Assembly: GCA_963758195.1 (NCBI GenBank)
Contig: CAVWUH010000002.1
Span: 2,061,560-2,125,559 of the forward strand
DNA: 64,000 bases
DNA from: an uncultured Acidobacteriota bacterium
GTDB taxonomy: Bacteria > Acidobacteriota > Thermoanaerobaculia > Gp7-AA8
Direction: 5' to 3'
Under the pieces are notes generated by a model. That model saw only the letters and a list, made by a program, of their open reading frames with translations, had not been told where the DNA came from and made no database searches. Shown in pieces: positions 4,393 to 34,954 of this stretch. Within the stretch, counting starts at the first letter, position 1. Every line of letters begins with the position of its first letter. The position numbers and the translations under genes were made by a program.

Positions 4393-4471
4393 GTTGCCGG
4401 TGATCGGTTGTCCGTTGTCCGGGCGTCGCTAACGCGACTTCACGGACAACCGACAACTGAGAACCGTCAAC
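4393..4471. repeat. Tandem-heptamer hairpin A (GGTTGTC type), atpG-atpD intercistronic
   Basis: Left arm GTTGCC GGTGATC GGTTGTC CGTTGTC CG, right arm CGGACAAC CGACAAC TGAGAAC CGTCAAC. 24 of 29 positions pair. The 21-nt loop contains a mini-hairpin GTCGC-TAA-GCGAC. Confidence 0.85.
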
Positions 4472-4478
4472 TCATTTG

Positions 4479-5339
4479 TCATCCCGCGGCCGCCGCGCCG
4501 CTCACGATCTCGATGATCTCCTTCGTGATTGCGGCCTGGCGAATGCGGTTATAGGTCAGGGTGAGGTGATCGATCATCTCGCTGGCATTCTTCGTCGCGG
4601 CTTCCATGGCCGTCATGCGCGCGCCTTGTTCGGCGGCGGCGGATTCGAGAAGCACGCGATAGAGCTGGAACTCGATGTGTTTCGGCAGAAGATCGCCGAG
4701 GATCTGCTCCGGGCCCGGCTCGTAGAGATACTCGATGGCCGGCTCCGGCGTGTCCGCCCAGGAACGGTCGAGCGGGAGAAGCCTCTCGAGCGTCACGCGC
4801 TGCGCGATGATCGATTTGAATTCGTTGTAGAGCACGTAGACCGCGTCGAATTCGCCGGAGATGAAATCGGCGCTCAACGCCTGCGCGATCTCACGCGCGG
4901 TCTCGAGCGAAAGCGCCTGATAGACGTGCGTCGCCTGGCGCTTGATCGGGAACGGACGGCGCTTGAAGAAGTCGAACGCTTTGCGGCCGATCGGCAGCAG
5001 ATGCACATCCTGCCAGCCTTTTTCGGCAATCGCGTTCTGCGCCGCGCGAAGGACGTTGGTGTTGAACGCGCCGCACAATCCGCGGTCGGCGGTGACGACG
5101 AGCAACAGAACTTTGTTCTCCTGCTCGCGCTCCTGCAGCAGCGGATGTTTGGAGATGTCGACGCGCGAGGCGACGGACGCGAGCACCTGCCGCAGCGCCG
5201 CCGCATACGGGCGCGCGGCCATCATCCGCTCCTGCGCGCGGCGTAGTTTCGCGGCGGCCACCATCTTCATGGCCTTGGTGATCTGCTGCGTGTTCTTGAC
5301 GCTGCGGATCCGGCGTCGGATATCGATCGTGCTTGGCAT
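4479..5339 (-). CDS. atpG: F1 ATP synthase gamma subunit (intact)
   Basis: From the ATG at 5339: [36 protein letters not shown]. The conserved C-terminus is [16 protein letters not shown]. Confidence 0.95.
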
Positions 5340-5343
5340 GGTT

Positions 5344-5417
5344 AGCTCGCAGCTCGCAGCTCGCAGCTCGCAGCGCAACCCAACTCCTGAGAGCTGAGAG
5401 CTGAGAGCTGAGAGCTC
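5344..5417. repeat. Tandem-heptamer hairpin B (AGCTCGC x4 / GAGAGCT x4), atpA-atpG intercistronic
   Basis: Four exact AGCTCGC units (5344-5371), a spacer AGCGCAACCCAACTCCT, then four exact GAGAGCT units (5389-5416). Six of 7 positions per unit are complementary. It fills the whole gap between the atpA stop (5418) and the atpG start (5339). Confidence 0.9.
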
Positions 5418-33026: not shown

Positions 33027-33059
33027 TCGAAGTTCGCGCTCTTCCCGGAGCGTCGCTCA

Positions 33060-33674
33060 CTATTGCTCCGGAAGCGGTGCCTGCTCCGGATCGGTCGGCG
33101 AGTTGGCGGGCTTTCCGTCGCGACGCAGACGAGGCTTGACCTTGCTCGAAAGCTCAAGGGCCAGCTTTTCCAGGTCCGGACGGGCGACCTTCGCCATGTC
33201 TCCGACTCCCGGCATCACGCACTTGCCGGAACGGCGCAGGCGAGTATTGAGGAAGCCGACGGTTCCGCCGTACGTGGTGTTCTCGACCCATTCGGTCCAC
33301 TGGCCCGCACCTTCGTGCGGATCGGGGTTGCCGGCGAACAGCTCGATCACCATGCCGTCATGGCCCATGTTGTTTCCCCACTCGCCGTGCATCAGCACGC
33401 GATCGCCTTCCTGATCGTAGCGGCCGCGCCAGTTCGGGTAGCTCGTCGAGTACCAGACGCCCTGGATCGACGTTCCGACCGCCGCGTAGGGCATGAAGCA
33501 GAGCGTCTGCGTGGCCCAGCGCGCATGAACGGTCGAGGTGTCGTCGTACGCGGTGATGAGCCACTGATTCCCGCCGTCGTACACGTTCGGCCGCGGCTGC
33601 GCAGACGCGCTGCCGGCAATGGCTGCAAGGGCGATGAGACCGAGGATGAGAATGCTGCGTTTCGAATTTCGCAT
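33060..33674 (-). CDS. Secreted Trp/His/Tyr-rich hypothetical protein
   Basis: Signal peptide MRNSKRSILILGLIALAAIAGSASA. The mature part is rich in W, H, Y and G. The start is 45 bp downstream of the peroxidase stop. Confidence 0.55.
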   Translation of the reverse strand: MRNSKRSILILGLIALAAIAGSASAQPRPNVYDGGNQWLITAYDDTSTVHARWATQTLCFMPYAAVGTSIQGVWYSTSYPNWRGRYDQEGDRVLMHGEWGNNMGHDGMVIELFAGNPDPHEGAGQWTEWVENTTYGGTVGFLNTRLRRSGKCVMPGVGDMAKVARPDLEKLALELSSKVKPRLRRDGKPANSPTDPEQAPLPEQ

Positions 33675-33719
33675 AGAGGAGTCTCCTTCCTCAGTAGTGA
33701 AGGAAACGCCGTCAGCGTT

Positions 33720-34880
33720 TCATCGCCCCGCGGAATCGGGGCGAGTCCAAGGATCCGAGAGACGCGCATCCACGAGCAACTCTTCATCGGTCAGCGCGCG
33801 AAGAAATGCGATGAGGTCCTGCTTTTCGTCAGCGGTGATCGTGAAGGGCTGCATCGCGCTGCTGCGCAGAGGATTGCGATCGCCGGCGCGTCCTCCCTTC
33901 GCGTAGTGATCGATGACTTCCGCGAGTGTGGCGATGCTGCCGTCGTGCATGTAGGGTGCGGTCACTGCGATGTTGCGCAGCGTCGGAACGCGGAAGCGGC
34001 CGACGTCGTTGCAGTCGTGCGTCGCGCGCGCGAGCCCCAGGTCGCGGTCGGGATACGCGCCGGCGCCGTCGAGGTTGTAGAGCGCGGTGTTCTCGAACGA
34101 GGGATCGGGGCGCGCCTTCTCCGCGTAGGCGCCGCCGCCCGCAAACGTGATTCCGCTGTGGCACGTTCCGCAACGTGCGCGATCGCCGAAGAAGATCCGC
34201 ATGCCGCGCTGTTCCGCGTCTGTCAGCGCGTGCGCGTCGCCGTCGAAGACGAAGCGGTCGTAGCGTGAGCGCCCCGAGAGGATCGATCGCTCGAACGAGG
34301 CGATTGCCTTGGCGATGTTTGCGAACGCGAATGCGTTCGGCTCGTGCGGAAACGCGGCAGCGAAGAGCGTTTTGTATTCGGGCACATCCGAGATCCGCGC
34401 GAGCACGATCGACTCGCGGTTCTTCACGCCCATCTCCACTGGCGTCTCGTTCATCAGCGGCACGAGTGCCTGTTGCTCGAGCGTCTGCATCGCGGGATTG
34501 CCCCACGTAAGCGCGACCACGTAGGCGCTGTTCGCGAGCGCCATCGAGCTGCGGAAGTGATCTTCGCCTGTCGAACCGATCGCGCGCGCGCGTCCGTCCG
34601 TGAACGCGCGCGCCTGTTGGTGGCAGTCGGCGCACGACTGCGTGCCGTTGCCCGAGAGACGCCGATCGTAGAAGAGGTAGCGGCCCAGCTCGACTTTCTC
34701 GCGAGTCGGAACGTTGGTCGCGGGAACGACCGGCAGCGGAAAGCCGCGAGGCACGCCGAGAATGCGGCGCAACTCGTTGGATGCGCGGAGGTCGTCTTTG
34801 CGTAGATCGTTCGCGAAGAGCGGCGCGACGATCGCAATCGCGAGCGTCACGCGTAGCGCGAACGAAGGCAACGGGTTCAC
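33720..34880 (-). CDS. Di-haem cytochrome c peroxidase (CCP/MauG family)
   Basis: Two haem motifs CADCH and CGTCH, plus PTLRNIAVTAPYMHDG. The start is set at GTG 34880 (VNPLPSFALRVTLAIAIV), because further upstream the ORF reads through hairpin H. Confidence 0.85.
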   Translation of the reverse strand: MNPLPSFALRVTLAIAIVAPLFANDLRKDDLRASNELRRILGVPRGFPLPVVPATNVPTREKVELGRYLFYDRRLSGNGTQSCADCHQQARAFTDGRARAIGSTGEDHFRSSMALANSAYVVALTWGNPAMQTLEQQALVPLMNETPVEMGVKNRESIVLARISDVPEYKTLFAAAFPHEPNAFAFANIAKAIASFERSILSGRSRYDRFVFDGDAHALTDAEQRGMRIFFGDRARCGTCHSGITFAGGGAYAEKARPDPSFENTALYNLDGAGAYPDRDLGLARATHDCNDVGRFRVPTLRNIAVTAPYMHDGSIATLAEVIDHYAKGGRAGDRNPLRSSAMQPFTITADEKQDLIAFLRALTDEELLVDARLSDPWTRPDSAGR

Positions 34881-34954
34881 GCGGAGACGCGGAGACACGG
34901 AGAGGAGGGCTGGCAGCAATCCTTTTTCTCCGCCCCTCCGCGTCTCCGCGTGAA
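34877..34954. repeat. Tandem-octamer hairpin H (CGCGGAGA type)
   Basis: TCA CGCGGAGA CGCGGAGA CACGGAGA GGAGGG, loop CTGGCAGCAATCC, then TTTTTCTCCGCCCCTCCGCGTCTCCGCGTGA. The outer 18 bp pair perfectly. Confidence 0.85.

Follow-up and report, generated by a model that had tools for sequence, protein, structure and literature searches.

Inverted pairs of tandem 7-9-nucleotide repeat arrays at gene junctions of core operons in an uncultured Acidobacteriota bacterium and its relatives

What kind of element fills the narrow gaps between genes of core operons with hairpins whose two arms are each built from tandem copies of a very short unit? The question is raised by a stretch of 64,000 nucleotides (nt) from an uncultured Acidobacteriota bacterium (Thermoanaerobaculia; assembly GCA_963758195.1, contig CAVWUH010000002.1, positions 2,061,560 to 2,125,559), hereafter the window, in which an earlier note, made from the sequence alone, had described seven complete hairpins and one solo arm with arms of tandem 7-8-nt units. 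Our analyses show that these elements are real, multi-copy and resident at the same junctions across congeneric species. Comparison of orthologous sites shows that unit number and unit sequence turn over fast, and the complementarity of the arms appears to be kept by compensatory changes, for which a five-sequence alignment of the atpG-atpD junction provides suggestive evidence. We tentatively read the window elements as palindromic microsatellites resembling repetitive extragenic palindromic (REP) sequences, that is, as arrays of a 7-9-nt unit that face each other in inverted orientation across a short spacer, a reading that we hold to be plausible and not quite probable.

The seven hairpins and the solo arm were recovered at the expected positions by Tandem Repeats Finder, an inverted-repeat scan, shuffles and folds. 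Tandem Repeats Finder reported complementary array pairs of period 7 at 4407/4445, 5344/5387, 15218/15270 and 18956/19018, pairs of period 8 at 9848/9887 and 34879/34927, and the solo array at 28604, with 3.1-4.4 copies per array over both periods, and our own scan agreed. The inverted-repeat scan gave arms of 25-39 nt with a complementarity of 79-89% (4393-4471, 9379-9448, 9850-9914, 15219-15296, 18956-19042 and 34876-34954). A detector of paired arrays, requiring two complementary tandem arrays of equal period no more than 80 nt apart, detected six hairpins in the window, whereas 100 dinucleotide-preserving shuffles averaged 0.01, with a maximum of 1, and the RNA folds of the elements ranged from -40.8 to -77.7 kcal/mol (z -3.5 to -9.8), values that no shuffle equalled. 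The window total is thus seven complete pairs and one solo arm plus an eighth, degenerate hairpin at 187-273, and these nine sites, eight of them non-coding, all lie within the first 35 kb. At least three tandem units and a nearby complementary array on the opposite strand, the defining features of paired inverted arrays of 7-9-nt repeats, were both found, as were multiple copies, a mostly intergenic location and variation among related species (in the first 35 kb of the window and in congeners). Pfam matches, synteny with an annotated relative and tblastn confirmed the gene contexts, all of which had been given correctly, including that of the one element inside a coding sequence. It is of note that atpD, atpA, parB, atpH, atpC and an ntrC-like gene each need at least two reading frames to match their orthologues (window 2918-6961, 9925-10796 and 304-1686); these frameshifts indicate an indel-rich assembly, probably from long reads, and single-base details of the units may therefore be unreliable. 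At gathering thresholds, Rfam returned one tRNA and nothing else in the window.

Relatives were located via AtpG homologues, and the congeneric assemblies among them are independent, short-read assemblies (MEGAHIT, JGI). Elements were present at the same junctions in these assemblies, which shows that they are not assembly artefacts. In five loci with an AtpG identity of 94-99% (L001, L003, L168, L169 and L171, of which L001 and L003 share ~88% nucleotide identity with the window), the atpG-atpD gap is occupied by an element in every case. The atpA-atpG gap presents a graded series: no element is present in L006 and L170, where the gap measures 9 nt; in L171 it comes to 13 nt and contains a single unit, in L001 to 27 nt with a single unit in each arm, and in L168, L169, L003 and the window to 67-78 nt, each arm then having about four units. 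The AGCT-core unit is confined to this junction within the sample. The comparison of orthologous junctions that the earlier note had called for therefore reveals variation among congeners in presence, unit number and unit sequence alike. Locus L003 contains seven sites in 16.8 kb, with further elements at the atpF-atpH, atpD-atpC, atpC-hisKA and parB-bactofilin junctions, and three of its elements, at different junctions, have a core of ~75 nt in common and differ in their loops. In relatives at 80-83% nucleotide identity (L004-L006 and L170), the atp and par junctions are tight (3-43 nt) and empty, and the elements must therefore be dispensable to the atp and par operons. As a separate observation, the deposited atpD call in L168 (1346-1436) runs 23 codons too far upstream, straight through the hairpin element.

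These data bear out the view that the elements have an architecture in common rather than a sequence, that several unit families exist side by side and that whole intercistronic gaps are filled. The related proposal that they are not copies of a mobile sequence holds only in part: the units do differ between loci, but five of the eight window elements are of GGTTG type and L003 harbors near-copies. Near-identical copies at unrelated sites were seen in L003, whereas in the window only the type of unit is common to different sites.

Evidence for conserved pairing comes from the atpG-atpD element, for which five aligned orthologues yield a consensus helix of 31 pairs, 9 of them compensatory. Changes on both sides of the helix affected 15 cells, whereas shuffles yielded 8.8 +/- 2.1 (1 of 500), and the paired fraction dropped to 16-54% in slid controls. 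From these five related sequences, it is suggestive that pairing at this element has been upheld by compensatory changes. We also observed that the position of a mismatch is "flipped" between species, both between window 4393-4471 and L169 2505-2609 and between window 5344-5416 and L169 1568-1643. The flipped mismatches (T.C vs G.A and A.G vs C.T) are such as inversion of the hairpin or exchange between its arms would yield; the alignment fails to separate these events from two independent substitutions. A candidate interpretation of the window atpA-atpG element as an inverted version of the L169/L003 element was dropped because the alignment scores (34.5-35.5 vs 31-32) are too close for a quasi-palindrome.

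A difference in folding stability between the two strands or their transcripts had been proposed on the basis of one systematically non-Watson-Crick position per unit. In the element at 15218, the pattern is indeed as described, with five G-T pairs on the + strand and folds of -53.2 (+) vs -46.5 (-) kcal/mol, and the better-pairing strand is antisense to trmE. The asymmetry does not follow the transcribed strand: comparison of minimum free energies between sense and antisense revealed no bias. Where the sense strand is known, its RNA is the more stable in only 10 of 20 elements flanking atpG and, among five such elements of the window, in three. We therefore saw no evidence for strand-specific selection at the RNA level. 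Nor do the elements look like intrinsic terminators, since no T-run follows the stem at any of them and a terminator scan of the window, which flagged no element as a terminator, stayed at chance level (16 sites vs 15.3 expected in shuffles); its sole match inside an element is a small 8-bp stem on the + strand (9368-9391) in the left arm of the 9374-9448 element.

To place the window in a wider context, we surveyed ~2 Mb of atpG-centred loci from metagenomes and named genomes, taken from the AtpG matches listed (no more than 77% AtpG identity); the census and the searches for mobility reported below cover these loci and the 64-kb window. The detector found ~60 hairpins with many different units in the ~2 Mb, distributed over Vicinamibacterales, Blastocatellia, Pyrinomonadaceae, Terriglobales, Nitrospirota, Methylomirabilota and one Chitinophagaceae genome, with spacers of 5-31 nt across elements. 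Among arrays of at least 24 nt whose period is not a multiple of three, period 7 stands out with 183 arrays, against 6, 10, 45, 54 and 9 for periods 4, 5, 8, 10 and 11, respectively, and 97 of the 255 heptamer arrays with at least three copies (38%) belong to inverted pairs. In 45 of 58 elements (p = 3e-5), it is the 5' arm that is G-rich, a count that is identical on whichever strand it is read. In many lineages (L008-L167), atpG has elements with unrelated units close to its ends, 20 of 57 elements being no more than 60 nt away, roughly twice the uniform per-junction expectation by a rough estimate; both this count and the G-first count include related elements, and their effective sample is accordingly smaller. 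The sample comprises at least 19 heptamer clusters, and individual genomes have their own dominant unit families, for example GGTTGCT in L003, AGTAGAA (three times) in L135 and a 9-mer (three times) in L119. Common descent of the units was also considered on the strength of clustering, but under single linkage one cluster absorbed 21 of the 49 heptamer units by chaining, and this result was not trusted. In L096 (Vicinamibacteraceae), heptamer arrays of ATTCTGA/TCAGAAT occur at 5107-5538, 16255-17007 and 20092-20119 as inverted pairs with spacers of 200-700 nt. A search for inverted array pairs up to 4 kb apart, as possible flanks of insertion sequences (IS), returned only cross-matches between separate elements.

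The earlier note knew of no described repeat class with this design, a claim that proved incorrect, given the descriptions by Aklujkar et al. (2009) and Rehm et al. (2015): the inverted tandem-array design has been reported in Geobacter and in Xanthomonas and constitutes a poorly understood class, not a new one. According to the first paper (BMC Microbiol 9:109, PMC2700814), Geobacter metallireducens contains opposite-strand pairs of 3-5 tandem 7-9-nt repeats, of which classes 1-3 consist of four tandem GTTGCTYN, three tandem TCTCCGTS[Y] and five tandem MTYCTGA units. The same text annotates the pairs as "putative global regulator binding sites", proposes integration host factor (IHF) or HU as the binder in explicitly speculative terms and reports that ISGme8 and ISGme9 keep a constant distance to one array, or to both, of class 1 pairs. 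The likeness to the window elements is close, comprising tandem 7-9-nt units on opposite strands, multiple copies, a mostly intergenic location and several classes per genome. It extends to the unit cores at the level of the published consensus sequences: the core of GTTGCTYN matches GGTTGCT (L001 and L003) and GTTGTC here, the core of TCTCCGTS matches TCTCCGCG at window 34877, and the class 3 consensus MTYCTGA gives a unit identical to ATTCTGA in L096. All three hexamer cores (GTTGCT, TCTCCG and TTCTGA) recur, with a probability of ~1e-3 to 1e-2 by rough estimate for three chance matches out of three and with the qualification that the main unit of the window is GTTGTC, not GTTGCT. On the other hand, the class 3 pairs of Geobacter lie ~70-115 nt apart rather than 5-31 nt as here, its sites are read as protein-binding sites and not as hairpins, an IS association is reported there whereas none was seen here, and the phylum is a different one.

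In Xanthomonas, GGGAATC arrays form 70-75 convergent pairs per genome with stem-loop potential (Rehm et al. 2015, PLoS One 10:e0144275, PMC4692102); they mostly have 4 units, are 89-93% intergenic, lie near the end of the upstream gene and differ in length and sequence between related species at the same junctions, and a regulatory role was not found. Inverted heptamer arrays in intergenic positions, with interspecies variation at fixed junctions, are features of the window elements as well, and from the unit and the stated convergent orientation it can be deduced that the G-rich array is also the 5' arm in Xanthomonas. The difference is that only one unit family, G-rich and investigated for G-quadruplex formation, is found in Xanthomonas, whereas most units here (GGTTGTC, AGCTCGC and GAGTCGNC) are incapable of forming quadruplexes, so that the G-quadruplex is not the common denominator. 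REPINs, hairpin-forming extragenic inverted doublets of REP sequences with conserved arms, a variable spacer and frequent compensatory changes (Bertels and Rainey 2011, PMC3116915), resemble the window elements in being hairpin doublets with compensatory changes, and REP sequences likewise sit within operons and between convergent genes. They differ in that their arms are a fixed imperfect palindrome of ~20-25 nt, in place of the tandem 7-8-mers with a unit varying by locus, and in that they are tied to the gene of a REP-associated tyrosine transposase (RAYT), for which tblastn gave no match better than E = 0.2 in the window and the ~2 Mb of loci with an approximate E. coli RAYT query. Tandem heptanucleotides are also the substance of the short tandemly repeated repetitive (STRR) sequences of heterocystous cyanobacteria, present in ~100 copies per genome according to the account of Mazel et al. 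(1990) given in PMC4692102, and of the TAACTGA repeats of Beggiatoaceae, with one inverted case among 170 sets (PMC4679880). Both resemble the present elements in having tandem heptanucleotides in many copies per genome, mostly intergenic and near start codons; both are chiefly direct arrays, only "a few" paired repeats being found in Nostoc and pairing being outside the STRR definition, and taxon and units differ. Rickettsia palindromic elements are a conserved family of ~100-150 nt that is devoid of tandem-unit arms and can sit in frame in protein-coding genes. In-frame residence is a feature of the trmE element as well, whereas no element sequence is conserved here. To our knowledge, nobody has so far treated the paired-array design as one general class.

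How might such elements arise and persist? Since the 1990s and 2000s it has been recognised that bacteria contain an excess of heptamer repeats, for which we know of no established function or mechanism. If the elements are REP-like palindromic microsatellites, their arms would change in one-unit steps by replication slippage, with period 7 as the favoured slippage step, as for other bacterial heptamer repeats. Complementarity would be upheld either because selection acts, as in REPINs, at the level of the element and on the hairpin itself or because one arm serves as the template for repair of the other. Elements would occasionally be copied as blocks to new sites, as we infer from the in-frame trmE insertion and the near-identical copies in L003. 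They would be mostly tolerated passengers, which when transcribed would form a stable imperfect stem-loop between cistrons, and would act neither as intrinsic terminators nor as strand-specific RNA signals. Several points weigh against this account. No mobilising enzyme was identified in the RAYT search of the window and the ~2 Mb of loci, and the three L003 copies show neither target-site duplications nor a common sharp boundary. Slippage alone leaves the similar copy numbers of the two arms unexplained; a test for unit variants in mirror order between the arms was negative (43 elements, p = 0.19; low power), and the atpA-atpG series is not polarised as gain or loss. Persistence at the same junctions across species could mean a function for the host, as could the adjacency to atpG and the strong G-first bias.

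A possible, if somewhat unlikely, alternative is that the paired 7-9-nt arrays form one cross-phylum repeat system with its own machinery and are not a by-product of slippage. This idea draws on the cores GTTGCT, TCTCCG and ATTCTGA common to Geobacter and Acidobacteriota and on the G-first arm order, the kept complementarity and the repeated occupation of atpG junctions in unrelated lineages. Together, these four observations would point to a conserved trans-acting reader or writer, be it a repeat- or hairpin-specific recombinase, a transposase or a binding protein, and to a constraint on transcription or replication of the hairpin. In combination, the cores shared across phyla, the G-first polarity and the recurrent atpG occupation would raise the elements above an ordinary repeat, and our analysis explains none of the three.

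Other explanations start from mobility or from the RNA. [quoted passage not shown] The ~75-nt core common to three L003 copies at different junctions, the prevalence of one or two unit families per genome (L003, L135 and L119), the block-like, in-frame nature of the trmE insertion and the recurrence of unit cores across phyla all agree with such an origin, and the fixed spacing of ISGme8 and ISGme9 to class 1 arrays in Geobacter metallireducens would fit arrays that are ends or targets of IS. We nevertheless regard a MITE origin as unlikely, given that the L003 copies lack target-site duplications and defined termini, that some units are locus-specific and held at one junction across species, that copy numbers change in steps of a single unit, as is typical of slippage and not of transposition, and that a limited search of the window and the 2 Mb of loci revealed no transposase adjoining an element. 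A post-transcriptional role, as mRNA stabilisers, RNase III or RNase E processing sites or translational decouplers, in particular a role in setting the lower output of atpG relative to atpA and atpD, would account for the exact filling of the stop-to-start gaps around atpG, for the unrelated units flanking this gene in many lineages (the 20 of 57 within 60 nt), for compensatory changes that conserve pairing and for stems that leave out the atpD and bactofilin Shine-Dalgarno sequences. The G-rich arm coming first could also be understood in this way because, as a speculation, this order would keep a C-rich stretch on which Rho could load from being exposed ahead of stem closure. However, the elements are missing from sister lineages that have the same operons, they also occupy a divergent promoter region, convergent gene ends and a coding sequence, sense RNA has no stability advantage over antisense (10 of 20), U-tract terminators are absent and the Xanthomonas repeats have no reported regulatory role (PMC4692102), all of which makes a regulatory RNA function decidedly improbable.

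At the DNA level, the arrays could serve as binding sites for a nucleoid or regulatory protein, by analogy with the IHF/HU proposal in Geobacter, the hairpin being a by-product of symmetric sites. The annotation of the Geobacter pairs as putative global-regulator sites (PMC2700814) points in this direction, the cores common to Geobacter and Acidobacteriota (GTTGCT, TCTCCG and ATTCTGA) could reflect a conserved reader protein, and the absent strand bias fits a role of double-stranded DNA. Set against this are the many unrelated units (at least 19 heptamer clusters), a speculative proposal with no known binder, compensatory changes that two independent arrays would not need and spacers as short as 5-30 nt, and we consider protein binding a very doubtful explanation. 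It is next to impossible to maintain that the hairpins are intrinsic terminators of the ordinary kind or arose as artefacts when noisy long reads were assembled: the window is full of frameshifts, and strong GC-rich hairpins at gene ends do resemble terminators, but the same elements in independent short-read assemblies refute the artefact, and the terminator reading is not supported, with no T-runs, a scan at shuffle expectation and several elements inside operons or a coding sequence.

The inverted-pair design extends beyond Xanthomonas and Geobacter and is common across uncultured lineages from soil, Acidobacteriota, Nitrospirota and Methylomirabilota among them. An element persists for long at its junction, even as its units and their number are replaced, with the arms still able to pair, and the design is markedly polar, with the G-rich arm first, and able to reside inside core operons and even in frame in a gene of an essential pathway. 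A dedicated mechanism, if one exists, would represent a new class of genome-shaping activity. Even without one, the elements mislead gene callers into longer open reading frames (ORFs), as for atpD in L168, may break short-read assemblies and would be strong mRNA structures in highly expressed operons.

Among the individual elements of the window, the two flanking atpG illustrate the fit to the gaps. The atpG-atpD hairpin (4393-4471) consists of about four degenerate units of GTTGYCN / GACAACN around a 21-nt loop, with a sense fold of -46 kcal/mol (z -5.8), and the atpD Shine-Dalgarno sequence (GGAG) stays unpaired, 3' of the stem on the mRNA. The atpA-atpG hairpin (5344-5416) carries 4 x AGCTCGC and 4 x CTGAGAG on the + strand around a 12-nt loop (4.4 and 4.3 copies, both with 100% matches; sense -47.9 kcal/mol, z -4.3), has one non-Watson-Crick position in each unit and spans the gap, beginning 1 nt past the atpA stop and finishing 4 nt short of the atpG ATG. 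Between the convergent ends of a CxxCxxCC-family gene (+) and a bactofilin gene (-), the hairpin at 9374-9448 is 89% complementary (-41.4 kcal/mol, z -5.2) and combines outer CTGGTTR units with an inner stem that has no periodicity; in L003, the bactofilin-CxxCxxCC gap (1196-1652) contains instead of this heptamer hairpin a ~460-nt tandem array of a ~36-nt palindromic unit (GTGCGGACACGAGGTCCGCACA...). The parB-bactofilin gap harbors a hairpin of 8-nt units GAGTCGNC / GACTCGNN (9848-9914; 3.5 copies per arm; -40.8 kcal/mol, z -3.5), of which L001 and L006 have short, seed-like versions.

The hairpin within the coding sequence of trmE (mnmE), a gene on the minus strand, comprises 4 x GGTTGTC / 4 x GACAACT (15218-15298; 4.0 and 4.1 copies by Tandem Repeats Finder) and constitutes an in-frame, stop-free insertion of 81 nt, or 27 codons, in the N-terminal part of TrmE, as established by tblastn with TrmE of L006; L001 trmE has a degenerate version at this site. 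In the divergent intergenic region of rpmH (18693-18833, minus strand) and dnaA (start inferred at ~19181), 4 x GGTTGGC-type units face CCAACCG-type units across a 31-nt loop (18956-19045; -57.8 kcal/mol, z -6.4). The hairpin between a tetratricopeptide repeat (TPR) gene and a cytochrome c peroxidase gene (34876-34954) is made of 8-nt units ACGCGGAG / TCTCCGCG in 3 copies per arm (-61 kcal/mol, z -9.8), and the peroxidase gene probably begins with a GTG at the 3' base of the stem, to judge from its signal-peptide-like N-terminus. The degenerate hairpin at 187-273, outside the range covered by the earlier note, has 37-nt arms with 86% complementarity and a 7-nt period of GGTGACA/GATGACG/GTAGACG (-77.7 kcal/mol, z -9.7) and lies 3' of the ntrC-like gene, in a gap occupied by topA in relatives. 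The solo array at 28603-28630 (AGTTGTC GGTGGTC AGTTGTC GGTTGTC) overlaps the stop codon of a DUF507 gene and has no complementary arm nearby.

This solo array is followed by a doublet (28665-28771) of a separate REP/REPIN-like family, CTGTGTAGCGACGGCCGCC(TCGGCCGTCG), which is distinct from the heptamer hairpins and occurs in the window at 2401-2487, 28665-28771 and 44620-44638 (6 matches vs 0.08 expected) as two doublets in inverted orientation, of which one has perfect arms of 23 nt, and as a lone copy. Another family of long hairpins, GGAGGGCGGGCTTATAGCCCGCCG ... CGGCGGGCTATAAGCCCGCCCTCC, has copies at 39721-39815 and 63711-63810 (-66 to -75 kcal/mol). Finally, the region 52400-61000 of the window resembles a chromosomal integron, with a C-terminal fragment of an integron integrase on the minus strand (60586-60912; TIGR02249, E = 7e-49) and, at ~52.4-58.8 kb, imperfect attC-like hairpins of ~80-100 nt ending in GTTAGGY/GTTAGA between small ORFs.

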